From Alphaproteobacteria bacterium (GTDB lineage: Bacteria > Pseudomonadota > Alphaproteobacteria > SP197): a stretch of DNA of 64,000 bases. The stretch is taken from positions 1,191,406 to 1,255,405 of the forward strand of contig CBDAUG010000001.1 of assembly GCA_965200495.1 (NCBI GenBank), in the 5' to 3' direction. The translations under genes and the position numbers were made by a program. Below the pieces are notes generated by a model, which was not told the DNA's origin, searched no databases, and saw nothing but the letters and a program-made list of their open reading frames with translations. Below are positions 6,346 to 20,758 of the stretch, in pieces; the first letter of the stretch is position 1; the number at the start of each line of letters is the position of its first letter.

Positions 6346-7470
6346 TCATCGCGAGCGCCCGATGAAGGGCAGAGTCGTGACCTCTCCGTCACGCTCGCCG
6401 TCCGGCGTGGCGACCGACACCCGCGTTCCCGGATCCCAGGCGCTGCTTTCCACCATGGCAAGGGCGATGGTGGCGCCGAGGTCGGGTGAAAAGGCCGCGG
6501 ATGTCACCTGTCCGGCCGGTGCGCCTGACACAAGCAGGGGCCAGGGTTCAACACATGCTGGCGCCGCGGCGCCATCGAACCTGATGCCGCGGATCATCCT
6601 GTCGGGACCGCCCGCGTTGCGGATGCGCTCAAGGGCGTCACGGCCGATGAACTCCACGGGTGAGTCCAGATTCACGAAACGCCCGAGGGCACACTCGAAG
6701 GGATTGTTCTCGATTGTCATGTCGTTGCCGTGCGAGAGAAGGGCTCCCTCGATGCGCTCGATGAGATTCGGACAGCCCGGCCCCACGTGAAGATCCCGGC
6801 CGGCGTCGAAAAGCGCATCCCAAAGAGCCTGCCCGATGGCCGCATCGTCGATGTAGATCTCGAACCCGCCCTGCCTGGACCATCCCGAACGCGCCACCAC
6901 GAAGGCATGACCGGCAAAGGGCAGTGCCGCGAAGCCGAAGAAGCGGATGGTGCGCACCTGATCGCCGAGCACTCTCGAGAGGAGGTCGTCTGCCCTTGGA
7001 CCCTGTACGGCGATGGGGCCGACGCCCGGCTCGAAGACGCGTGCGTCGAGATCCAGGCCAAGGGCCAGGCCCTTGCCCCACAGGGCAACGTCGGAATCGG
7101 CGAGGGAAATCCAGAAACGGTCTTCCGCGAGCCGCAGAATGACCGGATCGTTGATCATGCCTCCCGTCTCGTCCACCATTGGCGCATAGGCACACCGGCC
7201 CGGAGCCAACCGGGAAACATCGCGCGACGTCATCAGTTGCACGAGGCGTGCGGCGTGCGGACCGACCACCTCGACCTGCTGTTCGCAGGTCACGTCCCAG
7301 ACCTGAACATGGCGCTTGAGGTGGTGGTAATCCTCCTCGAACCCGCGGAAGAACGTCGGCAGGAGCATGTGGTTGTAGACGGTGAACCCGCCGACGCCCT
7401 GCGCCTCGATACGTGACGTGAACGGTGTGCGGCGGGTGCGGCGCGACATCGAGATCACTGGCTCGTGCAT
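6346..7470 (-). CDS. Aminomethyltransferase-family (GcvT fold) protein, DmdA-like; candidate dimethylsulfoniopropionate demethylase
   Basis: ORF 6346..7923(-) trimmed to the ATG at 7470 (MHEPVISMSRRTRRTPF...), giving about 375 aa, as expected for single-domain GcvT/DmdA proteins. GcvT-fold motifs (FTVYNHMLLP, VQVWDVTCEQQVEV, GGFEIYIDD) and a C-terminal barrel are present. DmdA specificity is inferred from resemblance only. Confidence 0.65.
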   Translation of the reverse strand: MHEPVISMSRRTRRTPFTSRIEAQGVGGFTVYNHMLLPTFFRGFEEDYHHLKRHVQVWDVTCEQQVEVVGPHAARLVQLMTSRDVSRLAPGRCAYAPMVDETGGMINDPVILRLAEDRFWISLADSDVALWGKGLALGLDLDARVFEPGVGPIAVQGPRADDLLSRVLGDQVRTIRFFGFAALPFAGHAFVVARSGWSRQGGFEIYIDDAAIGQALWDALFDAGRDLHVGPGCPNLIERIEGALLSHGNDMTIENNPFECALGRFVNLDSPVEFIGRDALERIRNAGGPDRMIRGIRFDGAAAPACVEPWPLLVSGAPAGQVTSAAFSPDLGATIALAMVESSAWDPGTRVSVATPDGERDGEVTTLPFIGRSR

Positions 7471-7856
7471 GGTCCTGTCCCTGGTGGCCGAGAAGGCCCT
7501 CAATCGTGCTACGCTCGGCCGCCGGTGTATAGTTTTCCTCGACAGGGTCAGGACATGGTGAAACGCGACATCCTGCAGAAACTCTGCGGCAGCAGGGATC
7601 CGGTCCATGATTCCTGCGCCGAAACCTGTGATGCGACAATCTTCACGACACTGAACGACCGGGATCACGGGCTCGTTGTCGATGCCGTGCGGTCCCGTCC
7701 TGGCGACGATGCGAGGGTCCTTGATGCCGGAGCAGGCAGGGGATTTACCCATGTCGGCGCCATGGATGCCGGTGCCCTGGATCTCTCGGCGGGCATGATC
7801 GTCAAACACGAGAGGCTTGATCTGTTTCGCGATGCGCCACGACCGCTTACCGGCGG

Positions 7857-8645
7857 GTGTCGCCGTGCATGGGTGAGCGAGCCATGCGAGCCCATGCCGG
7901 GCGGTATGCCGGAACTCCGGCACAGGACCTGGCTTTTCCGGGTCATGTCGGGGCGTGCGGCAGCGTGACGGGCGCCGACCCGAAACCCGGACGCCCGGTA
8001 TGCGTGTGGGATCGCCCGACGCGGGTGTTTCACTGGGTTCTCGTCGTGCTTTTCGTCGTTTGCTATGTCAGCGGCGACCGTGGCAGGTTCGACATTCACA
8101 TCATGGCAGGAGAGGCCCTGCTGATCCTTGTCGTGGCGCGGATCATCTGGGGGTTCGTGGGCAGCGACACTGCCCGGTTTCGGCACTTCCTGCGCCCCCC
8201 GGGCGAGATCATGGCCCATGTGCGGTCCCTTGGTGAGCGACGGCCCGGCCACGAGGTCGGTCACAATCCCCTGGGAGGGCTTTCCGTTGTCCTGATGCTG
8301 TTCCTTCTCGTCATCCACACGGGTTCCGGGCTCCTTGCGGTGGATGTCGACGGATGGAACGAAGGACCGCTGTCGCATCTCGTGAGTTACGAAGCAGCGC
8401 GCAGTGCCTCGGCTGTTCACGCCATCACGGTTGACATGCTGCTCGTGCTGGTCGCCCTCCACGTGGCGGCTGTCGGATTTCACTGGCTCTACAGGCGCGA
8501 CAACCTCATCGGTCCCATGGTGACGGGCCGCAAGCGCCTTCCTCCGCAACGTGAGGCTCCGCGTCTCGTCGCGGACATCCGTGCCCTTGCCGCCCTTGCC
8601 ATTGCCGCTGCAGTGGTGTGCGCAGTGCTGTCGCTTGCCGGGTAG
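7857..8645 (+). CDS. Cytochrome b561 family (Ni/Fe-hydrogenase-type b cytochrome, CybB/YodB-like)
   Basis: VWDRPTRVFHWVLVVLFVVCYVSGD is the canonical start of the cytochrome b561 bacterial family. Four TM helices with conserved His residues are present. The start is uncertain: ATG at 7857, ATG at 7884, or the GTG near 7966. Confidence 0.7.
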   Translation: MSPCMGERAMRAHAGRYAGTPAQDLAFPGHVGACGSVTGADPKPGRPVCVWDRPTRVFHWVLVVLFVVCYVSGDRGRFDIHIMAGEALLILVVARIIWGFVGSDTARFRHFLRPPGEIMAHVRSLGERRPGHEVGHNPLGGLSVVLMLFLLVIHTGSGLLAVDVDGWNEGPLSHLVSYEAARSASAVHAITVDMLLVLVALHVAAVGFHWLYRRDNLIGPMVTGRKRLPPQREAPRLVADIRALAALAIAAAVVCAVLSLAG

Positions 8646-8648
8646 TGT

Positions 8649-9122
8649 TCAGTGGTCCTCGGCGCGGAAGACCGCATGACAGCCGCCGCACCCGTCGCGC
8701 CCAAGGGCCATGAAGGCCTCGGTCTGCGAGTCGCCATCTCCCGACGCCAGCGCCGTCTCGAGCATGGTCGCCCGCTCTCCCAGGAGTTGTGATGCCATCT
8801 CGAAGTCGGACCAGTTTTCCCAGATGGCATCGAGAGCGCCGGTTCGGGGCAGGGCGTCGACGCCGGTCCCCGGGGGAAAGAGCGATGGAATGGCGGCAGC
8901 TGCGTCCTTCAGGGCGCCGGTTGCCGCCAGAGCCTCCCCGGCACTGTTGCGGCCGGAGAGGAAACTCTTGATGGTCCGCATGGCTATTCCTATCTCTTTC
9001 ATGACCACGTGGCGCTCCTGGCCCAGCCTTTCGGCGTCCTCGAGGCTGACGATGTCGTCGCCCGACCAGGCCGCGGATCCCAGCACCACAGAAACAATCA
9101 CCGTCAGGATGGACTTACGCAT
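8649..9122 (-). CDS. Cytochrome c' (class II c-type cytochrome)
   Basis: ORF 8649..9170(-), start moved to the ATG at 9122, which has a GGAGGA RBS 8 nt upstream. It has a signal peptide (MRKSILTVIVSVVLGSAAWSG). The single CXXCH heme site (CGGCH) lies near the C-terminus, as in cytochrome c'/c556. Confidence 0.8.
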   Translation of the reverse strand: MRKSILTVIVSVVLGSAAWSGDDIVSLEDAERLGQERHVVMKEIGIAMRTIKSFLSGRNSAGEALAATGALKDAAAAIPSLFPPGTGVDALPRTGALDAIWENWSDFEMASQLLGERATMLETALASGDGDSQTEAFMALGRDGCGGCHAVFRAEDH

Positions 9123-9398
9123 GGCCGGTCCTCCACTTCTCAAGATGTGCAAGAGACTGAAACAGGTCATGTGGAGCCCGCAAGCCCCCGGCGCCGCTGT
9201 GAACGCAATCCGGCTGCCAGGGATCCGTCACGGAGCCTTGCGCAAGGGATCGCAACGAAGCCCGGACTTGACCCGGCATCACGATTGCGTAAATCGTGAG
9301 GCCTGCCCGGGTCACGGTGACATGGACCAGGCGGCCGATACGGTCCCGTGTCATGGGTCACGACAACCGGCTTTTTTTCAGGGCGGGGAGGTGCAGCA

Positions 9399-10844
9399 AT
9401 GAGCAGGGGCACCACTGTCTTTGCCCTTATTGTCTCCGTGCTGCTCATCGCTGTAGCCGGTGTGCTCAACATGCTGGCAAGGCAGAGCGGGGAAGCCGTC
9501 CTCGCCGATGCGGTGACGATGGCAACGGAGATTCGCGACGGCGTACGGGAAGCGGGAGTACCCGCTGTCAACGGAGTCCTGGAGACGGCATCACGCTTGC
9601 GGGCGACCCTTGATGCCGTTTCGGATCCTCAAGAAGACCTTGCCGGCAAGGTTGATGCATTGCGGGAGCGGCTGCAGCGGAGAGAGCGTGCAGCCGAAGC
9701 CCTCGGCGATGCTGATTCGTCGCTTTCCGAGGCGATCGATGTCTGGAAATCGGCGGTTGCCAGAGCCGGGAAGGGGGCATCGGACCTGGCCGGACTCGTG
9801 GAGGGCATGGACCGGTATCTCGCCGGAACCGGCCCTGCCCCGAGCCTTGAATCTGTCCGTTCCCACGGTGATGTGGCGCTTGTTGCGGCAGCAAACAGTC
9901 TGGTGAGCGAAAAGCGCGCTCTGGATGCGCTGCTCGAGGGGCTGGCTGCCAACAGGGTGACCGGTGCAGCCGAGCAACTCGTCATGTCCCTGGAGATCGA
10001 GCGCGGCCGCCGGGCGCTTGTCGCCCGCAACTATGATGATGCGACGGTTGCCGCCTTTGGTGCTCTGGCGCTGGTCTGGGTTCTGCTTGGCATCCGCGGG
10101 CGACGCCCCGGTGAGCCGGCGCAACACAAAGCCGATCCCGTCAGGGGAACACTGCTGATCCGCGGAACGGCGGCAGCGGTGGCGATGCGGGCGCAACGTC
10201 TCGCCGCGCACACCAATGCGCTGAGAGAGACCCGCCAGAGACTTGGAAACGCCATCGTCGAGGCCGGGCTGGACCGGTCGCTCAACGATGATGCTTCCCT
10301 TCACCTGGAAGTGGAAAACCTGGACGGTCATCTCGCCTGCCTGCGCGATGAAACCGGCGAACTGTCGTCTCTGGGCAAGCGCCTGTGGACTCTTGCCGGG
10401 GGGGCAGCGCAGGCGTCGACAGCCAGTATCAACGCGTGCATCAGGGAAGCGCTCGAGGCGATCAGGGCAGGCCACCGGATTCCTGTCATGACGGAACTTG
10501 CCGATGTCGGTGATGTCAGAGGTGTGGCATCCGACATCGTGCTGGCCCTGACGGCCCTGATCGAACGTGTCCTCACGGCGTCGCGGGAAGCAGGAATGGA
10601 CCACAGCGCCATTCGCGTCTTCAGCGCGGCCAGTGATGACCGGGTGCATGTCACGATCACCGGAGGCGCTCCCCTTCCACAGTTCACGGAGCGTACGTTC
10701 AGGCCGTACGGCGCCTCTCACGAGCTGGCACTGGCTATCGCTCTCCTCAGACGTCATGGCGGCAGCGTGATCCTGGGTTCGTCCATCGCCGGGGAGGCCT
10801 CGGCGCGCATATCCCTTGTCGCCGCATCGGGAGATCAGACATGA
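9399..10844 (+). CDS. Membrane-anchored sensor-histidine-kinase-like protein with degenerate (probably inactive) HATPase domain
   Basis: ORF 9348..10844, start at the ATG at 9399, preceded by a GGGGAGG RBS. Topology is TM1 (aa 5-25), a roughly 190 aa extracytoplasmic coiled-coil-rich region, TM2 (about aa 215-235), and a cytoplasmic region with a DHp-like helix (AAHTNALRETRQRL). The CA-like domain has an N-box LTALIERVLT (Asn lost), a G1 box TITGGAP (Asp lost) and a G2 box ASHELALAIA (degenerate). Its stop overlaps the next gene's start (ATGA at 10841-10844). Confidence 0.6.
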   Translation: MSRGTTVFALIVSVLLIAVAGVLNMLARQSGEAVLADAVTMATEIRDGVREAGVPAVNGVLETASRLRATLDAVSDPQEDLAGKVDALRERLQRRERAAEALGDADSSLSEAIDVWKSAVARAGKGASDLAGLVEGMDRYLAGTGPAPSLESVRSHGDVALVAAANSLVSEKRALDALLEGLAANRVTGAAEQLVMSLEIERGRRALVARNYDDATVAAFGALALVWVLLGIRGRRPGEPAQHKADPVRGTLLIRGTAAAVAMRAQRLAAHTNALRETRQRLGNAIVEAGLDRSLNDDASLHLEVENLDGHLACLRDETGELSSLGKRLWTLAGGAAQASTASINACIREALEAIRAGHRIPVMTELADVGDVRGVASDIVLALTALIERVLTASREAGMDHSAIRVFSAASDDRVHVTITGGAPLPQFTERTFRPYGASHELALAIALLRRHGGSVILGSSIAGEASARISLVAASGDQT

Positions 10845-12832
10845 AGGCGCTGCGCTTTCGGGTTCGCAACTATCGCAACATCGAGGACAGCGGCTGGGTA
10901 CCACTCGATCCGGTCACGGTCCTTGTCGGACGCAACGAGTCGGGAAAGACCTCCCTGCTGAAGGCGCTCAACAAGTTCAATCCGGGAACGGCGGAAACCT
11001 TTGACGCTCAGCGCGAATTTCCGCGTGACCGCTATACGCGCGACTATGTCCTTGCCGGTTCCACGGGCGCGGAGTGGCCTGTCTGTTCCATCGAGTTCGA
11101 GATTCCCGACCAGCAGAAACGCGATATCGCAACCCTGCTGGGTCCGGACCGGGCGGTGCCCGAGAAGGTCACCGTCACGCGCCACTACGACGGCTCTCTC
11201 GCATTTTCCTACATGCCTCAGATCGGGGCCAAACCGGCAGGGCCGGATCCTCTCATGGGGGCTCTCGAGGATCTGGCGCTTTCTGACGATTCGCCGCGCC
11301 TGGCTGCATGGGCCAGCGCGTGGCACGATCGGTTGAGCAAGATTGATGACGTCACAAGCGCTGCCGGCCGTGCCGCTCTGGCCGAAATCGACGCAGAGAT
11401 TTCCGGCCTCGGTGATGAACGGCTCGGCGCTCTCGGTGCGATCGTCGCCGCCATGCTGCGGATGCCCTTCGCAAGCAGGGTGATCGATCACGTCAACGCC
11501 CTGGTGGAACGCGAGCTGCCGCGGCTCGTCTACTTCGAGAACTATGGCGTTCTCGACAGTGCCATCTGGCTGCCGGAGATGTTGCGGGGCCTTGAACGCG
11601 AGGAACCGGAACCGCGGTTCCGAACCGCCCTTGCGCTCTTTCGTCATGCGGGCCTTGATCCGCGGGACATCGCGGAACTCGCCTCCCCGGGCAACACGGC
11701 GCCGGGCGAAGACATGCAACGCAAGATGGAGGAGCGGGCCATCCGTCTCAATGCCGCGTCGGTCGACATCAGCCGTCGCTGCAGCGCGTTGTGGTCGCAG
11801 AGGCGCCATCGCATCCGGTATCACGTCGACGGAGATTACTTTCGCATCAGGGTTGCTGACGATTCGCTGGAGGACGTGGAGATCGAGCTGGAATCCCGCG
11901 GCAAGGGTTTCCAGTGGTTCCTCTCGTTTTTCCTCGTCTTTGCCGCGGAGTCGGAGGGCGCCATGGGCGACGCCATCATCCTGCTGGACGAACCCGGCCT
12001 CAGCCTTCACCCGACGGCACAACGTGAACTGCTGGCGTTCTTCGAGCGTTTGTCCGCCGAAAACCAGGTCATCTACACAACGCATTCACCGTTTCTTGTC
12101 GACGGTGATCATCTCGAGCGGGTGCGTCCGGTGTTCGAGGAGGACAACGGGCGTGCCCGCATCCTCAAGGGTTCATGGCCCGCCCATCCCGAAACGGTGT
12201 TCGCGCTCAAGGCGGCTGCCGGATATGCGATGTTCGATTCCCTTGCGCAACGTGGTCGGGCGCTGCTTGTCGAACAGGTCAGCGACGCCTGTTACCTCGA
12301 GGCGCTGTCGCGGCACTGTGGCAGAACGGGGAGGAGCGCGCTGGACGATTCCGTCGACGTGGTGCCCTGTGGCGGTGCGGCGGTGTGCGGTTATCTGGCA
12401 TCCCTCCTCATGGCCGAGCACCGGCGTCCGCTGATCCTCTTCGACGGCACGGACGCCGGGCGCCTGCGGCGGCATGGACTGGTGAAGGGCCTCCTCGACG
12501 AGGGAGACAGTTCGATTGTTCTCCTCGACGAAGCTCTCGGCTGGTCCGGACATGATATGTGCCTCGAGGATCTCTTCGGCGAGAGCATCATCCTCGAGTG
12601 TCTCGGCACTGCGACCGGGATCAGGCTGTCGCTTGCCCATGACGCTGATCGGGCGAGCCTCGTCGGTCGCATCGAGAGCGCAGCAGCGACGGCAAACATT
12701 GCGCTTCCCCGATCCTGGCGGTTGGACACGGCCCTGACGGTGACGTTGTCGCAAGTGTCCCTGCCGGACGACGTCCTCGATTCGGCCTCGCTTCTCTTCA
12801 CGAAGCTTGCCGGTGACGACCAGGGACAATGA
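10841..12832 (+). CDS. OLD-family nuclease-like protein: N-terminal ABC-type (AAA_15/AAA_21) ATPase plus C-terminal Toprim-like domain
   Basis: 663 aa. Walker A GRNESGKTS at aa 30-38. An OLD/AAA_21-type Walker B/signature ILLDEPGLSLHP and an H-loop YTTHSP. The C-terminal about 200 aa has Toprim-like motifs (LLVEQVSD, VVPCGG, ILFDGTD, VLLDEA). Translationally coupled to the upstream gene. Confidence 0.65.
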   Translation: MKALRFRVRNYRNIEDSGWVPLDPVTVLVGRNESGKTSLLKALNKFNPGTAETFDAQREFPRDRYTRDYVLAGSTGAEWPVCSIEFEIPDQQKRDIATLLGPDRAVPEKVTVTRHYDGSLAFSYMPQIGAKPAGPDPLMGALEDLALSDDSPRLAAWASAWHDRLSKIDDVTSAAGRAALAEIDAEISGLGDERLGALGAIVAAMLRMPFASRVIDHVNALVERELPRLVYFENYGVLDSAIWLPEMLRGLEREEPEPRFRTALALFRHAGLDPRDIAELASPGNTAPGEDMQRKMEERAIRLNAASVDISRRCSALWSQRRHRIRYHVDGDYFRIRVADDSLEDVEIELESRGKGFQWFLSFFLVFAAESEGAMGDAIILLDEPGLSLHPTAQRELLAFFERLSAENQVIYTTHSPFLVDGDHLERVRPVFEEDNGRARILKGSWPAHPETVFALKAAAGYAMFDSLAQRGRALLVEQVSDACYLEALSRHCGRTGRSALDDSVDVVPCGGAAVCGYLASLLMAEHRRPLILFDGTDAGRLRRHGLVKGLLDEGDSSIVLLDEALGWSGHDMCLEDLFGESIILECLGTATGIRLSLAHDADRASLVGRIESAAATANIALPRSWRLDTALTVTLSQVSLPDDVLDSASLLFTKLAGDDQGQ

Positions 12833-13077
12833 ACGGCAGATTGATCCCATTCCAGGGTTTCGTCTCTGGAACCCGCCGCTGTTGGTGATGCCGACCGTCT
12901 TCTTCATCGCCAGACCCGTTGCCGATGTCGCGCACGGCACTGCGAGCACCCGGACATTGCCGGCATGGAGGCGGAGTTTGTCGATCGAACGATCCGTTGA
13001 TGCGGTTTGCATTGGCGCCGTGAAGTGGCTATAAGCAGCAATAGCAGGAAACTTCGTTTCATCAGAGGAAACAGACC

Positions 13078-13989
13078 ATGTGCGGAATCGCCGGTATCCT
13101 GTTGAAGAACGGGGACAGTGGCATCGACACCGGGACGGCGCTGGTCGACATGCTCGACGGCTGTCAGCACCGCGGACCGGACTCGACCGGCTTCGCCCTT
13201 TACGAGAGTGGCGAGGAAGGCCATCTCAAGCTGCGGTTTCAGGTCGGGTCCGACAACGAGGCGGGCGACGCCATCGCAGCCCTCAAGAAGGTTCTCGACG
13301 AACACGCCGCCGAGGTCGTCGAGGAAGAACGCATCGCTGGCAGCTATCGGGTCGTGGTGCGTTTCAGCGGTGACCTGCAGGCGTTCTCCTACGCCGTAGA
13401 GCAGGCCGCCAAGGTGGTGTCGATCGGCGAGAGCCTGGAGATCGTGAAAGACGTGGGCGGCGCCCATGACGTCGACGACACCTATGACGTCCATCTGTTC
13501 AGGGGCTCGCACGGTCTGGGGCATGTGCGCCTTGCCACCGAATCGGATGTCAAGCCGGAGGCCTCGCACCCCTTCTGGGCGACCGGATTTGCCGATGTCG
13601 CGATTGTCCACAACGGACAGATCACGAATTACTGGAAGATGCGCCGTCGTCTCGAACGCCGCGGGTTCGCGTTCGCGACGGACAACGACAGCGAACTCAT
13701 TGCCGTCTATCTGGCCGACAAGATGAGTCAGGGGATTGCCCTCAAGGACTCCCTGGCCTCGTCCATTGATGACATGGACGGAACATTCTCCTTTCTTGTG
13801 TCGACCCGTGACGAGATCGGCTATGCGAAGGATCGGCTTGCTGCCAAGCCGATGATCATGTTCGAGAACGATGACCTGATTGCCATTGCCTCTGAAGAGG
13901 TCTCGCTCAATCGCCTGTTCCCGGGCCGCGCACTCGATACCCGTGAACCGCCTCCGGGAAGCTACAGAACATGGTCACGATCGATCTGA
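13078..13989 (+). CDS. Class-II (Ntn) glutamine amidotransferase domain protein, GlxB/MgsA-like glutamate-synthase-type
   Basis: Starts MCGIAGI, with a catalytic N-terminal Cys after Met. 303 aa. GAGGAAACAGACC RBS. First gene of a glutamate-synthase-like operon. Confidence 0.8.
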   Translation: MCGIAGILLKNGDSGIDTGTALVDMLDGCQHRGPDSTGFALYESGEEGHLKLRFQVGSDNEAGDAIAALKKVLDEHAAEVVEEERIAGSYRVVVRFSGDLQAFSYAVEQAAKVVSIGESLEIVKDVGGAHDVDDTYDVHLFRGSHGLGHVRLATESDVKPEASHPFWATGFADVAIVHNGQITNYWKMRRRLERRGFAFATDNDSELIAVYLADKMSQGIALKDSLASSIDDMDGTFSFLVSTRDEIGYAKDRLAAKPMIMFENDDLIAIASEEVSLNRLFPGRALDTREPPPGSYRTWSRSI

Positions 13990-15944
13990 AGAACCTGTCG
14001 ACCCGCGAAGCCAACGAGAGCATTCGCGAGGCTGCGGCACGGGGCGAGACCATCGAGGTTCTCAATCCGGACGCTCGCCATCACATCGGTGTCGGCGTCA
14101 TTCACCCGGTTGATATCCATGTCCGTGGATCTGCCGGATACTTCTGCGCCGGACTGACCGACACACCGCGCTTTCACGTTGAACGCAATGCCGGCTGGGG
14201 GCTGGCAGACAACATGTACCGGGGATCCGTCGTGGTGGGCGGCAACGCCGGCGCCATCGCCGGGGTGGCGATCCGCGGCGCGGAAGTGGTGATCCGGGGC
14301 AACATGGGGTCGCGGGCCGGACAGGTCATGAAAAAAGGGACACTGCTGTGCTGCGGCAACGCCAACTTCATGGCCGGCTACATGATGTATGGCGGACGCC
14401 TGATCATCCTGGGCGAGTCGGGTGAGCGCCTCGGCGAGGACATGACGGGAGGCGAGATCTTCCTTGGCGGCGACCTCGTGTCGCTGGGGTCCGACGCCAT
14501 GGAGATCGATATCGCGCAAGACGAGATGGACGAGGTCCGGGCCTTTCTCGACCGCTACGAGATTGCCTTCCGTGGCGGGTTCCGCAAGATCGTGAATGCC
14601 GGAAAGAAACTGCGCTACGGCACCCCGGAGCGCCAGGTGCGCTCGATTCCCTACTTCAACTTTTCCGGCTCCAGCGATTACTGGAATCACAAGGTCCAGG
14701 AAGACGTCTACATCAAGTCCCAGATCGGACGCTATCGGGTGAGGGGGTACGGCGGCGCCCGCGAACTGCCGCATCTTTCCGACCTTGCCTTTGCCCGGGA
14801 CATCGTTCCGTACGCTGTCGGCGACGATCCGGTCTCCCATGTTCACATGCATACGCTGATTGGCGGCAAGAACGGTGCCAGACCCCTTGACCTGACGATG
14901 CCTGTGCTCATTGCTCCGATGAGCTACGGCGCTCTTTCGCGCTCCGCCAAGCAGGCGGTCGCCATCGCATCGGGCATGGCGGGGATCGCCGAGAATACCG
15001 GGGAAGGCGGCATGAGCGACGCGCAGCGTGACGCGGCAGGTCAGCTCATCTTCCAGATGCTCGGTGGCCGTCTGGGCTGGAACATCCACGACATGAACCG
15101 GGCGGACGGCCTGGAGATCTACATTTCCCAGGGCGCCAAGCCGGGATTCGGCGGCCAGCTCATGGCCAAGAAGGTGACGAAGGAACTGGCCGAGATCCGT
15201 GGCATCCCGGCCGGCATCGACCTTCGTTCACCATCACGCCATCCCGACATCCTGGGCGCCGACGATCTCGTCATCAAGGTCGAGGAGTTGCGCGAGGCGA
15301 CGGGCTACCGCCTGCCGGTCAGCGTCAAGCTGGGGGCGGGCCGCATCCACGACGACATCAAGATTGCCGTCAAGGACGGCTTCGATTTCGTCGAACTCGA
15401 CGGCATGCAGGGTTCGACCGGCGCCGGCGGCGCCGAGGTGATGGAGTATGTCGGCATCCCGACGATCTCTGCCATCTGCGAGGCAGAACGCGCCCTCGCC
15501 TCCATCGGCCGCCGCAAGGATATCGAGATCGTTCTCATGGGAGGGCTGAGAGACGGGGTTGATGCTGTCAAGGCCATGTGCCTGGGGGCCGATGCCGTGG
15601 CGCTGGGGACCGCCGCCATCATTGCCGGTGGCTGCATTGCCTGCATGCAGTGTCATGTCGGCCAGTGTGTCACCGGTATCGCCACCCAGGATCCCGACCA
15701 CGAGAAGCGCTACAAGCCCGAAATCGAGGCGCAGCACATCTATACTTTCCTTGAAAGCGTACGCTGGCAGATCGCGGCCATCACATGGGGATTGGGATAT
15801 GATGACGTACGTGGTCCGTGCCGCGATGACCTCGTCGCTCTCACACCTGAAGCGGCCGAGATTACCGGCCTTGCGCTGCGCCCGGAACGCCGGGCTGCCA
15901 GACTGCCGGAGACCGATGCAGCAATGGAACGGGTCCTTCGATGA
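13971..15944 (+). CDS. Fused GXGXG-domain (GlxC/MgsB-like) and FMN-binding glutamate-synthase central domain (GlxD/MgsC-like) protein
   Basis: 657 aa. The N-terminal about 230 aa has repeated G-x-G motifs (VVVGGNAGAIAG, VIRGNMGSRAG, LLCCGNANFMAG) typical of the GltB C-terminal GXGXG domain. The remainder has FMN-domain motifs (ISQGAKPGFGGQL, LDGMQGSTGAGG, GGLRDGVDAVKAMCLGADAV, CHVGQCVTGIATQD). The 19-nt overlap with the upstream gene is consistent with co-translation. Confidence 0.8.
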   Translation: MVTIDLKNLSTREANESIREAAARGETIEVLNPDARHHIGVGVIHPVDIHVRGSAGYFCAGLTDTPRFHVERNAGWGLADNMYRGSVVVGGNAGAIAGVAIRGAEVVIRGNMGSRAGQVMKKGTLLCCGNANFMAGYMMYGGRLIILGESGERLGEDMTGGEIFLGGDLVSLGSDAMEIDIAQDEMDEVRAFLDRYEIAFRGGFRKIVNAGKKLRYGTPERQVRSIPYFNFSGSSDYWNHKVQEDVYIKSQIGRYRVRGYGGARELPHLSDLAFARDIVPYAVGDDPVSHVHMHTLIGGKNGARPLDLTMPVLIAPMSYGALSRSAKQAVAIASGMAGIAENTGEGGMSDAQRDAAGQLIFQMLGGRLGWNIHDMNRADGLEIYISQGAKPGFGGQLMAKKVTKELAEIRGIPAGIDLRSPSRHPDILGADDLVIKVEELREATGYRLPVSVKLGAGRIHDDIKIAVKDGFDFVELDGMQGSTGAGGAEVMEYVGIPTISAICEAERALASIGRRKDIEIVLMGGLRDGVDAVKAMCLGADAVALGTAAIIAGGCIACMQCHVGQCVTGIATQDPDHEKRYKPEIEAQHIYTFLESVRWQIAAITWGLGYDDVRGPCRDDLVALTPEAAEITGLALRPERRAARLPETDAAMERVLR

Positions 15945-18457
15945 CGGATGCCAACATCCTGCCCGAGGAGCTCGCGGACGATACAGCCGACCGGCATTTC
16001 GTGCCCGCCCCCTGCCAGATCGCCTGCCCGGTCGGCACGGATGCGCCATCCTACATTGCCCATATCTGGGAGGGCAGGTTTGCCGAGGCCTTCGAGGCCA
16101 TCACGGCGACCAACCCGTTCAGCTCTATCTGCGGGCGCGTCTGCGATGCACCCTGTGAGCCGGCGTGTCGGCGCGCCTCAAGCGATGGCCCCTTGCAGAT
16201 CCGCAATCTCAAGCGCTTTGTCATGGACAGGCTCGGGGCCGAATGGGTGCCGGCAGCGGCGGCTGTGACCCGTGAAGAGAGTATCGGCATCGTTGGAGCC
16301 GGGCCGGCCGGACTGGTGGCGGCCCACGATCTTGCCGTTGCCGGCTTCAGGGTCGATGTCTACGAGATGACCGACCGTCCCGGCGGCATGATGATCTGGG
16401 GCATTCCGGCGTTTCGGTTGCCGGCGGGAACCCTGAAGGAAGATATGGACAGGCTGAAGGCCCGCTGTCCCGGTCTTTCCATCCACACGAATATTGCCCT
16501 GGGCCAGGACGTCACGCTTGCCGAGCTCAAGGAACGCCACGCTGCGGTGGGACTCACCATTGGTTCCTGGTGGGGCAAGACCATGGGGATTCCCGGTGAG
16601 GATGACGACCGCGTGATCGACGGCGTCGAGTTCCTGCGCCGGGTGAACGCAGGAGAACGCCCCGACATGCCGGCAACGGTCGTCGTCATTGGCGGCGGCG
16701 ATGTCGCCATGGATGCCTGCCGTGCCGCCCTGCGTTTGCCGGGGTGCGAGGAGGTCAAGGTCATCTACCGCCGCGGGCCGGAAGATATCCCGGCGCGGAA
16801 GATCGAACTCGAGGGCGCCATCGAGGAGGGCATCGAGTTCATCTACAACACGCAGCAGGTCGGCGTTCTTGCCGACAACGAGAACAGCTTGAGACTACGC
16901 TGTGTTCGCACCAAGGCTGGCGAACCGGATGCAGACGGCCGTCGCCGGCCGGTGACGGTCGAGGGATCCGAGCACGACATCAGCTGTGGCATGGTGATCG
17001 CCGCGGTCGGCCAGTATGGCGCCTGCGACGACCCCGCCACCCGGACTCTCATGTCTGACGATCGTGTGCGGACCGACTGGGAGACCATGCGGACCGATGA
17101 TGCGCAGGTCTTTGCCGCCGGTGACGGCGCCTTCGGGGGATCCACCATCGTCATGGCCATGAGCCATGGCCAGCGGCTTGCCTACTACATCAAGGCGTGG
17201 CTCGACGGTATCGACGATCCTGTTCCCTATCGTACGCCGTGGCGGACGCGGCGTGTGCCGGTGGCCCAGGACCTCAAGTGGGAGCTTCTGGGCCTGCATC
17301 ATCCGCCGTTCCACGGTGTTGGCGACAATCCGGTTGCGTTCCCGGAAATCGAGTCGACCTATACCTGGGCCGAAGCCCGCAACGAGGCGGCGCGATGCTA
17401 TCGCTGTGACGCCGAAACAGGCTCGGCGGACTACTCTGTCGCCAACCGGGAGGACATCTTCCTGATGGCGCGGATGAAGCGTGACGATACAACGCGCCAG
17501 GCCGCCATGCTGACCAAGCGCCTGCGGTCGCGCGACAATCCGTTTCCCGCAGATCGTCCGGCCACGGTCGACGATCTGGTTTTCCTGCCGGCCAATCTGT
17601 CGAGGCTGGTGATCGACCCCTATCGCGAGGCCTGCAAGGTGGCGACGGAACTGGGGTCCGGACGCATGGAGCTGGCGCAGCCCTTTTTCGTGACCGGCTT
17701 TGACAACGCGCCGGCCGAAGTGAAGCGGGGGATCGGACGCGGAATTGCAGAAGCGGCAGCGGGCTACATCGGCATGCGGCCGGTCGCCGACGATGTGGCC
17801 TGGCTGCAACTGGTGGTGGAGGGTCAGATTCCGCCACAGGCGGAGGCCGCGGGCCTCATTCATGTCATCGGTCCGCGCTTCGAGGCGCCAGGGAATATCG
17901 GCCGGTTCCGCGACGGGCAGGTCACCGGTCTTGCCGTCTCCCATGCGAGCGCTCTCGAGGATGCCATCGGCTTTGCCCTCGATCAGGACCTCGATGTTCT
18001 CCTGGTCAATGGCAACACCGCCACCGGGCGTGACTGGCCGGAACTGACCGGCGCTCCTGACCTCACGCTCATGCGTGACACCATTGCCTGCCTGCGCCGG
18101 CTCAACCGGGAAGAGGAAATCGATGTCCTCTGGTTTGGCGGCCTGCGTTCCGGAACCGACGCCGCCAAGCTCATCGCCATGGGTGCGAAGTCGCTGGTCA
18201 TGGGCATGACCGTGGCCTTGGCGGCAGGAGCCGAGTTTGACGATTCCCACCGGCTTGCATTTGCCCCCGATATCACGGCCGATGAATGCGCGAGGGCGGT
18301 TGCCAACATCCTGAAGTCGGCAGCGGGCGAGGCGTCGATGATGGCACGTTGCACCGGCAAGACCAATCTCCACAACCTGGAACCCGAAGACCTGCGCGCG
18401 CTCACGCTCGCCACTGCCGAGGCCACCGGACTGATTCTCGCCGGACACGCGTCCTGA
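15941..18457 (+). CDS. GltD-like NAD(P)H-dependent FAD/Fe-S oxidoreductase fused to a degenerate glutamate-synthase FMN-domain-like C-terminal module
   Basis: 838 aa. The N-terminal about 470 aa has Cys clusters (CQIACPVG, CGRVCDAPCEPAC) and dinucleotide folds (IGIVGAGPAGL, VVVIGGGDVAMD) like glutamate synthase small subunit GltD. The C-terminal about 370 aa resembles a GltB FMN barrel (LLVNGNTATG, VLWFGGLRSGTDAAKLIAMGAKSLV) but lacks the canonical GG-GGTGA motif. Start overlaps the upstream stop (ATGA). Confidence 0.7.
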   Translation: MTDANILPEELADDTADRHFVPAPCQIACPVGTDAPSYIAHIWEGRFAEAFEAITATNPFSSICGRVCDAPCEPACRRASSDGPLQIRNLKRFVMDRLGAEWVPAAAAVTREESIGIVGAGPAGLVAAHDLAVAGFRVDVYEMTDRPGGMMIWGIPAFRLPAGTLKEDMDRLKARCPGLSIHTNIALGQDVTLAELKERHAAVGLTIGSWWGKTMGIPGEDDDRVIDGVEFLRRVNAGERPDMPATVVVIGGGDVAMDACRAALRLPGCEEVKVIYRRGPEDIPARKIELEGAIEEGIEFIYNTQQVGVLADNENSLRLRCVRTKAGEPDADGRRRPVTVEGSEHDISCGMVIAAVGQYGACDDPATRTLMSDDRVRTDWETMRTDDAQVFAAGDGAFGGSTIVMAMSHGQRLAYYIKAWLDGIDDPVPYRTPWRTRRVPVAQDLKWELLGLHHPPFHGVGDNPVAFPEIESTYTWAEARNEAARCYRCDAETGSADYSVANREDIFLMARMKRDDTTRQAAMLTKRLRSRDNPFPADRPATVDDLVFLPANLSRLVIDPYREACKVATELGSGRMELAQPFFVTGFDNAPAEVKRGIGRGIAEAAAGYIGMRPVADDVAWLQLVVEGQIPPQAEAAGLIHVIGPRFEAPGNIGRFRDGQVTGLAVSHASALEDAIGFALDQDLDVLLVNGNTATGRDWPELTGAPDLTLMRDTIACLRRLNREEEIDVLWFGGLRSGTDAAKLIAMGAKSLVMGMTVALAAGAEFDDSHRLAFAPDITADECARAVANILKSAAGEASMMARCTGKTNLHNLEPEDLRALTLATAEATGLILAGHAS

Positions 18458-18642
18458 AGCGACCGTCGTCAGGTTCTCCTGACGGATCGCACATCACCAT
18501 GCATCCGTCGCTGACGCCGGGCGCCGTGCGGAAGCGACCGTCTTCAGGTGTTCTCCGAAACACTGTTTCATGTTCCGGGGCACGTGCTCCCAGGCATTCA
18601 TGACCGGTTTTCGTGGCGGGCCGCACAACACGGCGCGACCGT

Positions 18643-19176
18643 TCAGGTTCTCGTGGCGGGTGCGAAATCGATGACCCTGGCCTCGTGACCGCAGGCCGAG
18701 AGGAAGCGCAGGAGATCGCGCGGATGAAGCACTGTCGTCCGGTTGTTGACGAGCGGATGCAGGTTGACGCGATCCGTTTCCATGATGGCTTGATCGATGC
18801 ACACGCCGATGTCCTCGTCCGTGTCATTGATCAGGGCAAAGGGCGTGACGGCCCCGGGTTCGACACCGAGGATGTCACGCACTCTTTCGGGGCGAGCGAA
18901 ACTCAGGCGTGCAGAGCCGATGAGTCCGGCAAGGACCTTGAGGTCGAGTTGGCGTGATTCCTCGACCACCGCGAGCCACAGCTGCGCCTTCTTGTCCTTG
19001 AAGAACAATGTCTTGCAGTGAAGTCCGGGGAGGCTGCCACGCAACGCGCGGTTGTCGGCCACGGTATGCACAGGCTCATGTTCGTGGGTCGTAGAGGAAA
19101 TGCCGAGTTCCTTGAGTCTGGCGATCAGGTCCCCGGACGTCGCCCTGCCCGGCATTGTCGTCGTTGGTCGGTTCAT
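18643..19176 (-). CDS. YbaK/ProX-like aminoacyl-tRNA deacylase domain protein
   Basis: 177 aa ORF. The core (HxxVHT, GSLPGLHCKTLFFKDKK, AGLIGSARLSFARPE, GAVTPFAL) matches the YbaK/ProRS-editing fold. The start is uncertain: 19176 or the ATG at 19155. Confidence 0.6.
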   Translation of the reverse strand: MNRPTTTMPGRATSGDLIARLKELGISSTTHEHEPVHTVADNRALRGSLPGLHCKTLFFKDKKAQLWLAVVEESRQLDLKVLAGLIGSARLSFARPERVRDILGVEPGAVTPFALINDTDEDIGVCIDQAIMETDRVNLHPLVNNRTTVLHPRDLLRFLSACGHEARVIDFAPATRT

Positions 19177-19309: not shown

Positions 19310-20758
19310 ATGACTGAACAACTGGCTTCGCTTACCGTCATCTTCACGGAATTCTACTATTGGGTCACGGTCGTCCTCATGTTCCTGATCCATGTAGGGT
19401 TCTGTGTCTACGAGGTCGGCGCGTCGCGCCGCAAGAATATTCAACACACGCTGATGAAGAACACGATGCTGATCCCGCTGGTCACCATCACGTTCTTCTA
19501 TTTCGGGTGGTGGATCTATTTCGCCTTCCCACACTTCCCGCTGATGGGCGGATTGCTCGATGCGCCCTTTGCCGTGCCGTGGTCCGAACTCATGGGCGCC
19601 CACATGGGTGGCGCAGTCACTGTCCAAGCGTCGAGCCTGACGGCCGATGACACCATGTACTGGGCCCGCATCAACGGGGTCTTCTGGGCAGCATTCCTGC
19701 TGTTCTCATGGACCACCGCGTCGATCGTCTCCGGCGCCGTCATCGAACGCATCAAGACCCAGGCATTCCTGATCGTGGTCGTTCTTGTCGGTTCGGTGAC
19801 ATGGATCATCGATGCCGCCTGGGGCTGGAGCTACAATGGCTGGATGGTACAGCTGTGGGGCTATCACGATGCCTACGCATCCTCGGTGGTGCACGGCATT
19901 GCCGGTGGTTCGGCGCTTGGCATCCTCGTTGTGCTGGGTCCCCGGCTGGGCAAGTTCGCCGCCGATGGCACACCACGCGACATACCCCAGAACAACCCCT
20001 GGCTCGTCACGGTCGGTCTCTTCCTGATCTACACCGGGTTCTGGGGGTTCTATGCCGCGTGCAACATTCCCATCATCGACTACACCGCGGATGTCCTTGG
20101 AGCCGAGGGAGACCCCTTCTTCACGGCCACCAACATCTACCTGACACCGACATCGCTTTCCGCGATTACATTCAACTTCCTGATGTCGCTCTCGGGCGGT
20201 CTCCTGGCAGGCTATCTGGTCTCGAGGGGGCAGCCGTTCTGGAGTTATTCGGGCGGTCTTGCAGGTGTTATCTGCGCCTCTGCCGGCAACGATCTCTATC
20301 ATCCGATCGAGGCGATGCTCATCGCCATGGTCGGTGTGTGGATCGCCTACAAGATGCACCACTGGGTGGAGCGGAAGTTCAGGATCGACGATGCGGTGGG
20401 CGCCGTGGCCGTGCACGGTTACGCCGGTTTCGCCGGGACGGTGATCGCCGGCTTCATGCTTTGGGGTTATCCCTCCAACATCGCCTACGAGGCATCGGGC
20501 TGGTTCGGCAACACCGACGGTGTGGCATCCATCACCCCGCTCGGCCAGTTCCTCGGCGCCGTCATGATGTTCTGGGTTCTTGGTTTCCTGCCCTGCTGGG
20601 TTCTGGCCAAGATTCTCGACGGCCTGGGCTGGCTGCGCGTGCCGCGCGAGGTCGAACTGGCCGGTCTCGATACCCATGACTACGGGGACGCCTTCCCGTA
20701 CCATGCCTATCGGGACACGGCGATGGAGGACATCGACCGCGATCTTGCGAAGAGCTGA
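19310..20758 (+). CDS. amt: Ammonium transporter (Amt/MEP family)
   Basis: 482 aa, 11 TM helices. Amt signatures are present (SGAVIERIK, VVHGIAGGSALGILVVLGPRLGKF). GGAGGG RBS upstream. Confidence 0.85.
   Translation: MTEQLASLTVIFTEFYYWVTVVLMFLIHVGFCVYEVGASRRKNIQHTLMKNTMLIPLVTITFFYFGWWIYFAFPHFPLMGGLLDAPFAVPWSELMGAHMGGAVTVQASSLTADDTMYWARINGVFWAAFLLFSWTTASIVSGAVIERIKTQAFLIVVVLVGSVTWIIDAAWGWSYNGWMVQLWGYHDAYASSVVHGIAGGSALGILVVLGPRLGKFAADGTPRDIPQNNPWLVTVGLFLIYTGFWGFYAACNIPIIDYTADVLGAEGDPFFTATNIYLTPTSLSAITFNFLMSLSGGLLAGYLVSRGQPFWSYSGGLAGVICASAGNDLYHPIEAMLIAMVGVWIAYKMHHWVERKFRIDDAVGAVAVHGYAGFAGTVIAGFMLWGYPSNIAYEASGWFGNTDGVASITPLGQFLGAVMMFWVLGFLPCWVLAKILDGLGWLRVPREVELAGLDTHDYGDAFPYHAYRDTAMEDIDRDLAKS

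Follow-up and report, generated by a model that had tools for sequence, protein, structure and literature searches.

The closest described relatives of the locus considered here are the MgsABC/GlxBCD enzymes (EC 2.1.1.21), whose named carriers include Methyloversatilis universalis and Methylobacterium extorquens and, for glxBCD, rhizobia and SAR11; in SAR11 and the methylotrophs described so far, these genes occur as plain glxBCD or mgsABC. N-methylglutamate synthase was proposed to act in the manner of a glutamate synthase (GOGAT) on gamma-glutamylmethylamide and 2-oxoglutarate, with mgsABC-gmaS as the canonical gene order, and its redox cofactor was stated in this 2018 study to be unknown, with NADH, NADPH and ferredoxin as candidates (PMC6237917). 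Here we describe a three-gene cassette, g1-g2-g3, from a 64,000-nucleotide (nt) stretch of an alphaproteobacterial genome (assembly GCA_965200495.1, contig CBDAUG010000001.1, positions 1,191,406 to 1,255,405; hereafter the window). The best explanation of its sequence is that g1, g2 and g3 form one redox-coupled amidotransferase complex, which would work in a glutamate-synthase-like way and be assembled from GlxBCD/MgsABC-type modules.

Two other groups of enzymes serve as points of comparison. In GltBD, as in Escherichia coli and Azospirillum brasilense, GltB is a single polypeptide with the amidotransferase, a central domain, the flavin mononucleotide (FMN) barrel and the GXGXG domain in this order, and its C-x5-C-x4-C motif holds a 3Fe-4S cluster. 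In the archaeal-type split glutamate synthase, the amidotransferase, the FMN module and the GXGXG module are polypeptides of their own, and it is not known to have a GltD-type subunit with a barrel attached.

Architecture of the cassette

The three genes (Table 1) are translationally coupled, with a 19-nt overlap between g1 and g2 and an ATGA junction common to g2 and g3; the g1/g2 overlap is kept in 60 of the 63 loci with a complete cassette described below. The product of g1 matches GATase_6/7 in Pfam (E 6e-19), carries its Cys nucleophile directly after Met1 (MCGIAG), and shares 40% identity along its entire length with the Methylobacterium MgsA that is plasmid-encoded beside gmaS (BLASTP, E 3e-62). 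No BLASTP match was found between g1 and the N-terminus of E. coli GltB, and Glu_syn_central had no Pfam match in the cassette proteins. All GltB, GltD and glmS/purF-type NCBIfam models scored far below their cut-offs for these proteins, the GltB model NF008730, for example, reaching 162 bits against a cut-off of 1047.

In g2, the modules that correspond to MgsB and MgsC are fused. BLASTP gave 33% identity to Methylobacterium MgsB over residues 1–237 and 38% to Methylobacterium MgsC over residues 224–636, whereas the 36% identity to E. coli GltB extends over only 274 amino acids (aa). When g2 was searched against plasmids with tblastn, it was colinear with adjacent glxC and glxD genes at ~35% identity. 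The substrate and FMN motifs are present (QGAKPGFGGQL, SPSRHPD, DGMQGSTGAGG and MGGLRDGVDAVK), and among the best 120 homologues (77–96% identity, 610–657 aa) every one is fused.

The FMN barrel of g2 contains a short loop with four cysteines, of which C555, C561 and C566 (plus C558) align with the C-x5-C-x4-C motif of E. coli GltB and do not vary among 18 homologues. The canonical MgsC/GlxD proteins of Methylobacterium, Pseudosulfitobacter, P. aeruginosa and Ca. Mycobacterium methanotrophicum, four in all (Alpha- and Gammaproteobacteria and Actinomycetota), differ in that they have no Cys in the corresponding loop, which is 16 residues longer (GDNDPR...YDDW..G.DPAGITTQD). As judged from these alignments, g2 is MgsBC-like by descent and GltB-like at the putative electron-entry point, and the Cys loop fits the need for electron entry from a GltD-type partner such as g3.

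The N-terminal part of g3 resembles such a partner, with 33% identity to E. coli GltD in BLASTP. Its FAD motif GAGPAG (aa 119–124) and NAD(P)H motif GGGDVAMD (aa 251–258) are invariant across 24 homologues, and its candidate Fe-S cysteines are C25, C29, C64, C68, C72 and C76, plus C486-x2-C489. The first CxxC of GltD is missing, and the extra, family-invariant C486-x2-C489 after the nucleotide-binding domains may replace the missing N-terminal pair. The nearest NCBIfam models to residues 23–490 are PRK12771 (375 bits) and PRK12814 (365 bits), neither of which reaches its cut-off, and the GltD models score lower still (TIGR01317, 181 bits with a cut-off of 448; TIGR01318, 251 bits with a cut-off of 483). 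Foldseek matched this half to NfnABC subunit A (36–37% identity), NfnB (34%) and the beta subunit of the Azospirillum glutamate synthase (32%). The closest solved structures are the NfnB-like subunits of electron-bifurcating NfnABC, with the beta subunit of glutamate synthase slightly farther away.

At its C-terminus, g3 carries a domain that is truly homologous to the FMN barrel, with PF01645 homology and a TIM-barrel fold. Pfam gives only a weak Glu_synthase/FMN_dh match (aa 684–764, E 9e-4 and 3e-4, respectively), and a search of the barrel profile against the sequences of solved structures gave weak matches only, around the GGxRxGxD motif. However, hhalign of the g3 C-terminal family profile against the g2 family gave a probability of 97.8% (E 1e-12), both ends of the barrel match Methylobacterium MgsC in BLASTP (E 4e-18 and 2e-6), and the AlphaFold2 (AF2) model of the region is a TIM barrel, with a predicted local distance difference test score (pLDDT) of 70.5 and a predicted template modelling score of 0.75. 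The domain keeps FGGLRSGTDAAK (aa 732–743), and the second FMN-phosphate motif, FGG(V/L)RSGTDAAK, is invariant in the family. The segment LLVNGNTATG (aa 687–696) aligns with DG..GGTGA of GltB, MgsC and g2; in the multiple alignment, the family has DGSAGLG..W at the first phosphate motif, against NGNTATGRDW in g3 of the window. The QGAKPG..GG and SP..H.D loops for 2-oxoglutarate/glutamate and the Fe-S loop are absent from the aligned g3 barrel. Two barrel-flanking segments, FLPANLSRLVIDPYREAC (aa 548–565) and EASMMARCTGKTNLHNLEPEDLR (aa 797–819), are invariant and the most conserved parts of g3, and both have a pLDDT <50 in the AF2 models of the isolated domain and of the full-length protein. 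Because conservation together with predicted disorder in isolation is expected for an interface, these flanks are probably interface segments. The tail of g3 is closer to that of MgsC (EAQTIARACGKSHLHNLEPEDLVALT) than the tail of g2 itself is.

Taken together, the cassette is like MgsABC/GlxBCD in that g1 and the B and C modules of g2 are homologous to MgsA, MgsB and MgsC and colinear with them, and even the barrel of g3 derives from MgsC/GlxD. It is unlike them in the fusion of the B and C modules, in the GltB-type Cys loop of the g2 barrel, and in its third gene, a GltD/NfnB-like NAD(P)H/FAD/Fe-S module with a degenerate second barrel. No GltD-like gene was present in the canonical glxBCD/mgsABC loci inspected (L082, L084, L085 and L086), and we found no open-access paper that describes mgs/glx genes together with a GltD-like subunit or a degenerate barrel. 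With GltBD, the cassette shares the catalytic module set, the position of the Cys loop in the FMN barrel and, presumably, the electron path. However, its modules are split over g1 and g2 with GXGXG preceding FMN, the amidotransferase is GlxB-type rather than GltB-type, and there are three polypeptides; g3 furthermore differs from GltD in its CxxC motifs and in the attached barrel. As in the archaeal-type split glutamate synthase, as generally described, the functions of GltB are spread over several small polypeptides and there is no central domain. Dihydropyrimidine dehydrogenase (DPD) likewise has a GltD-like module fused to a TIM barrel, but the DPD barrel is dihydroorotate dehydrogenase (DHODH)-like and catalytic and is followed by two 4Fe-4S clusters, whereas that of g3 descends from GlxD and no longer has the catalytic loops; the partner domains of g3 also differ from those of NfnB, NfnABC subunit A and StnC.

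These results agree with an initial annotation of the window, made from the letters alone, in three respects. It had proposed three coupled genes for a class-II amidotransferase, a GXGXG-FMN fusion and a GltD-like protein, which the open reading frame (ORF) coordinates, overlaps and Pfam domains confirm. It had recognized a degenerate copy of the FMN barrel at the C-terminus of g3, a call upheld by the hhalign, MgsC BLASTP and LLVNGNTATG alignments. It had also held that the arrangement, with its GltD-type subunit, is neither GltBD nor separate GlxB, GlxC and GlxD, as the module order, fusion and homology bear out.

Table 1. Positions of the cassette genes, their modules and nearby features in the window (position 1 is the first nucleotide of the window).
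Feature	Position (nt)	Strand	Residues (aa)	Remarks
Candidate sigma-70-type promoter	13007–13035	+		TTGCAT-17 nt-TATAAG, 43 nt upstream of g1; read by hand only, weak evidence
g1	13078–13989	+	303 aa	GlxB/MgsA-type class-II N-terminal nucleophile (Ntn) glutamine amidotransferase
g2	13971–15944	+	657 aa	GXGXG module fused to catalytic FMN barrel
GXGXG beta-helix module of g2	14073–14465	+	35–165	Pfam E 5e-13
Catalytic FMN barrel of g2 (Glu_synthase)	14880–15800	+	304–610	Pfam E 1e-93
Fe-S loop of g2	15627–15692	+		GGCIACMQCHVGQCVTGIATQD; Cys555, 558, 561 and 566 invariant in the family
g3	15941–18457	+	838 aa	GltD/NfnB-like module fused to degenerate GlxD/MgsC barrel
N-terminal GltD/NfnB-type module of g3	15941–17410	+	1–490	Pfam Fer4_20 and Pyr_redox_2 at aa 23–410
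Linker of g3	17411–17572	+	491–544	Low AF2 confidence; pLDDT <50 over 491–513 and 523–567
Degenerate GlxD/MgsC-type TIM barrel of g3	17573–18457	+	545–838	C-terminal
Direct repeats GCGACCGTC(N)TCAGGT(G)TTCTC	18450–18660	none		Intergenic, between g3 and the convergent tRNA_edit gene
YbaK/ProX-like tRNA_edit gene	18643–19176	-		Convergent, between g3 and Amt; Pfam tRNA_edit E 1e-30
Divergent Amt-family transporter	19310–20758	+		Pfam Ammonium_transp E 1.5e-51; outside the operon

Distribution and neighbourhoods of related cassettes

The initial annotation had called the arrangement atypical. It is not peculiar to this genome: the cassette is conserved, and a scan of one genome per species found loci encoding the g3 barrel in at least 335 species-level genomes. 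The best 80 of these 335 loci, compared in detail, all come from marine metagenome-assembled genomes recorded as Alpha- and Gammaproteobacteria, Acidiferrobacterales, Planctomycetota, Acidimicrobiia and Latescibacterota. Full-length homologues of g3 fall into more than 100 clusters at 64–92% identity, and an exhaustive profile search returned 95 representative clusters at E <1e-30. Of 81 loci, 63 have the complete g1-g2-g3 set in this order; contig ends truncate 17 of the remaining 18, and the last (L032) is a barrel fragment only. In every locus where the contig allows, g3 is preceded by g1-g2. The identity of g2 is 76–80% across loci whose records name Alpha- and Gammaproteobacteria, Planctomycetota and Latescibacterota, and the flanks vary, a pattern that looks like a mobile accessory module rather than a housekeeping enzyme. 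Source annotations of the cassette proteins are loose ("glutamate synthase", "FAD-dependent oxidoreductase", "MgsC"), and several g2 homologues bear the JGI name "methylamine-glutamate N-methyltransferase subunit C".

Natural variants combine the modules in other ways. P0245 joins g2 and g3 in one protein of 1486 aa, P0248 joins g2 to the barrel without the GltD part (1031 aa), and free-standing barrels of ~360–430 aa exist, one of which (P0282) has its gene immediately behind a 648-aa g2-like gene. From these arrangements, in which it is fused to g2-like proteins or encoded beside them, the barrel is a mobile module that always travels with a g2-type subunit. Loci L087 and L089 are also among the variants of the module set. 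The barrel fragment at L032 (9842–10849) is isolated, with no g1 or g2, beside a transposase-like helix-turn-helix (HTH) gene, an M20 peptidase gene and a truncated glutamine synthetase-like gene, and is probably a rearranged remnant.

Neighbourhoods were counted within the loci themselves, which span 20 kb in the clade of the window. A type III glutamine synthetase gene of the GmaS type starts 144–264 bp behind g3 in 13 loci, which belong to several gamma- and alphaproteobacterial lineages, and in a fourteenth (L057) a type III glutamine synthetase gene lies ~3.5 kb downstream of g3. The g3-adjacent synthetase reaches 675 bits with TIGR03105, for which the cut-off is 470, and shares 68% identity with the GmaS that Methylobacterium encodes beside mgsABC. 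Five of the 13 GmaS-linked loci (L049, L053, L075, L079 and L080) contain SoxB/A-like, that is Mgd-like, genes, with delta- and gamma-like subunits in L075, and four contain folD; no separate mgsABC was seen. None of the Sox-like genes reaches the sarcosine-oxidase cut-offs, which is what genes for N-methylglutamate dehydrogenase would give. In the canonical loci of Methylobacterium and Pseudosulfitobacter, the order is regulator, glxB, glxC, glxD, glnT, and mgsABC likewise stands directly before gmaS (PMC6237917). Compared with this order, the cassette of the GmaS-linked loci stands in the place of mgsABC, and g3 is interposed ahead of gmaS. A distant variant, L087, has SoxBDAG-like genes, an HTH/cupin regulator, the amidotransferase, the g2-barrel fusion, a glutamine synthetase-like gene and a tRNA_edit gene in this order, the synthetase-like protein being only 38% identical to GmaS.

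A second recurrent neighbour is a LarA-like gene, a homologue of nickel-pincer-type racemases, which starts 105–526 bp after g3 in 18 loci (L058, at 11105–12391, and 17 others) and is below all NCBIfam cut-offs (Ni_dep_LarA, 362 bits with a cut-off of 460); in 7 of these 18, a major facilitator superfamily (MFS) transporter gene and a GlpD-like dehydrogenase gene follow it. Genes for LarA and LarC are also found ~4 kb from the canonical glxBCD-glnT cluster on the Pseudosulfitobacter plasmid (L084, 11912–13969). GlnE is encoded nearby in six closely related loci (NF010706, 1001 bits), an ArgE/DapE-type deacylase ~0.2–3.5 kb upstream of g1 in 12 loci, and a PuuR-like regulator in some. In a neighbour-joining tree of g3, GmaS-linked loci sit on several early branches, LarA-linked loci are confined to a few alphaproteobacterial clades, and the clade of the window is a derived crown group. 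Of the positions that are invariant among GmaS-linked homologues, g1 of the window keeps 95.7% and g2 92.8%, and thus neither gives a sign of a specificity shift.

Surroundings of the cassette in the window

Upstream of g1, the sigma-70-type candidate was missed by a consensus scan because its second hexamer ends in G. A nitrogen-regulated sigma-54 promoter was considered and rejected: TGGCAC-N5-TTGCW is matched about as often as chance predicts, and the scan gave no match within 12833–13077. Downstream, a spacer of 186 nt separates the stop codons of g3 and the tRNA_edit gene and holds two full copies and one partial copy of the repeat GCGACCGTC(N)TCAGGT(G)TTCTC, all direct; by chance, two copies in the window have an expectation of 0.02.

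The initial annotation had placed the Amt gene next to the operon. The two are not contiguous here, with the convergent tRNA_edit gene between them, but a divergent Amt does recur near the cassette, in two arrangements that total 17 loci: downstream in the window and 11 relatives of its clade, and upstream of g1 in five GmaS-linked loci. In the latter, it is divergent in L049, L050, L053 and L068 and on the same strand in L066. Identity to the window copy is 93–96% in its clade and 64–68% in the five GmaS-linked loci. The Amt subfamily (for example, the window gene and L053 3565–4971) scores only 166–173 bits with TIGR00836, the window copy reaching 173 bits against a cut-off of 343, and its alpha- and gammaproteobacterial copies are 64–68% identical, as if cassette-borne; it could be a methylammonium transporter. 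The tRNA_edit gene stands beside the cassette in 12 of the 80 loci compared (the window and 11 relatives of its clade), and the homologue adjoining the distant g2-barrel variant (L087 12977–13426) is 33% identical and in the other orientation.

Three co-oriented ORFs lie directly upstream of g1 (8710–12832). The ORFs at 8710–9402 and 9348–10844 have no family match, and the third (10841–12832) encodes an AAA_15/AAA_21 ATPase whose best PADLOC matches are AriA, Old, GajA and PtuA (E 4e-26); the trio may be an uncharacterised defence system. Part of the clade of the window keeps the 498-aa ORF at 9348–10844 (5 loci) and the ATPase (9 loci) upstream of the cassette. Farther upstream, on the reverse strand, the GCV_T-type ORF at 6346–7923 is identified by NCBIfam as a true DmdA (539 bits against a cut-off of 410), its listed start being probably ~150 codons too far upstream, and the gene at 171–2702 encodes an 843-aa protein with a dimethylglycine dehydrogenase (DMGDH)-like architecture (DAO and GCV_T). 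The initial annotation had cited these two genes in proposing an NAD(P)H-linked enzyme that may act on methylamine. They carry little weight, as they lie 5–13 kb upstream, beyond unrelated genes including the defence-like ATPase trio, and the proposal itself gains support from the Cys loop and from the GmaS/Mgd/folD loci.

Proposed function and its alternatives

We are rather confident of the general mechanism, in which electrons would flow as in GOGAT, from NAD(P)H via g3 to the g2 FMN, and this flow would be coupled to the hydrolysis of an amide by g1. The GltD/NfnB-like half of g3 would accept the electrons of NAD(P)H through its FAD and Fe-S clusters and hand them on to an Fe-S cluster seated in the Cys loop of g2 and then to the FMN, while g1, as a Cys1 Ntn hydrolase, would free an amine from a gamma-glutamyl amide. 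The amine would then add to 2-oxoglutarate at the FMN site of g2, where the imine would be reduced. The degenerate barrel of g3 may be a non-catalytic paralogue of the FMN subunit that docks the electron-input module onto g2/g1, acting as a pseudo-subunit adaptor. We infer the electron path and the adaptor role of the barrel indirectly, and the identity of the amide or amine donor is the most conditional part of the model.

As for this donor, we hypothesize, with a probability of about one half, that the cassette encodes an NAD(P)H-dependent GOGAT-style synthase which makes N-methylglutamate from gamma-glutamylmethylamide or methylamine and 2-oxoglutarate, and which works with GmaS and N-methylglutamate dehydrogenase. 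The reaction would be gamma-glutamylmethylamide (or free methylamine) + 2-oxoglutarate + NAD(P)H -> N-methylglutamate (+ glutamate). Such a reductive N-methylglutamate synthase is favoured because of the GmaS/Mgd/folD clusters, the descent from GlxBCD, and the accessory, horizontally spread distribution of the cassette.

Several observations weigh against this hypothesis. The GmaS link is present in only 13 of the ~65 loci with enough downstream sequence, and the LarA-like gene, which the N-methylglutamate model does not explain, is the commoner immediate downstream neighbour. No gmaS, mgd or folD was found in a search of the whole window, nor are they present in the 20-kb loci of its own clade. 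The sequences give no discrimination between glutamine and gamma-glutamylmethylamide as the substrate of g1. On the redox side, g3 has only six of the eight N-terminal cysteines of GltD, and the Cys loop alone is no proof of g3 as the donor, because some MgsC-like proteins without a fused GltD part carry the loop as well (P0371, P0375 and P0248).

At the level of sequence analysis, an ordinary NAD(P)H glutamate synthase that uses glutamine and is split and fused in an unusual way, serving ammonium assimilation with glutamine synthetase and the nearby Amt, would look much like a reductive N-methylglutamate synthase, and this too counts against the latter. We regard the ordinary enzyme as less likely, yet as a serious rival and the most credible of the alternatives. 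The cassette has its full cofactor logic (an Ntn amidotransferase, an FMN barrel with a GltB-type Cys loop, a GXGXG domain and a GltD-like subunit), the neighbourhoods include nitrogen-assimilation genes (Amt in 17 loci, GlnE in 6 and a glutamine synthetase-family gene in 13), and source annotations read "glutamate synthase"; however, g1 and g2 are of the GlxB/C/D type and not of the GltB type, as indicated by the lack of a GltB match for g1, by the GXGXG-FMN order and by the low scores of the GltB and GltD models. The adjacent glutamine synthetase, moreover, is of the GmaS type and sits with Mgd/Sox-like genes and folD, which an ordinary glutamate synthase does not need, and the cross-phylum identity of g2 with variable flanks suggests a mobile accessory module.

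It is rather improbable that the same redox machinery acts on another amine or amide donor (e.g., gamma-glutamyl-alkylamides) or is tied to 2-hydroxy-acid metabolism, in which case the LarA-like racemase and the GlpD-like FAD dehydrogenase could supply 2-oxoglutarate from 2-hydroxyglutarate. We know of no biochemical precedent for a link between LarA enzymes and glutamate-synthase-type enzymes, and LarA-linked loci occur in few alphaproteobacterial clades. Nor is there obvious active-site divergence between LarA-linked and GmaS-linked homologues, since 151 of 187 GmaS-invariant columns in g1 and 359 of 414 in g2 are also invariant in the LarA-linked ones. What speaks for this alternative is the recurrence of the LarA-like gene after g3, of the MFS transporter and GlpD-like dehydrogenase behind it, and of the ArgE/DapE-type deacylase and PuuR-like regulator, as well as the distance of the L087 synthetase-like protein from GmaS. 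Finally, the resemblance to DPD raises the question of whether g3 is a self-contained NAD(P)H flavoenzyme of that type, its own barrel binding FMN and substrate independently of g1 and g2. We hold this to be very improbable: the barrel has neither the substrate loops nor the Fe-S loop nor a clean first phosphate motif, it is GlxD-derived rather than DHODH-like, g1-g2 always precede g3 where the contig allows, and natural fusions join the barrel to g2 without GltD (P0248) or g2 to g3 (P0245).

Building on the reductive N-methylglutamate synthase hypothesis, we tentatively suggest that many uncultured marine bacteria run a "methylamine GS-GOGAT cycle" (GS, glutamine synthetase), in which GmaS would capture methylamine at the cost of ATP, the cassette enzyme would transfer it reductively to 2-oxoglutarate, and N-methylglutamate dehydrogenase would pass the methyl group to tetrahydrofolate, with the reductant built in as a GltD-like subunit recruited by a dead barrel adaptor. 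If N-methylglutamate synthesis is indeed the role of the cassette, the long-unknown reductant of N-methylglutamate synthase would be hard-wired as a GltD-like subunit, and the cassette would be a natural form of the enzyme with its electron donor apparently built in.

The degenerate barrel, as read from its sequence, would be a clear case of a pseudo-enzyme domain that is retained as a module moving between partners. The ecological relevance of the cassette follows from its presence in at least 335 species-level genomes, almost all of them of uncultured marine Alpha- and Gammaproteobacteria, Planctomycetota and others. Ocean metaproteome surveys count MgsB and MgsC (PMC9477243, PMC8889253). 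These counts may include the cassette enzyme, because several g2 homologues carry the name of an MgsC subunit; if the enzyme is an ordinary glutamate synthase instead, such counts would overstate methylamine use.

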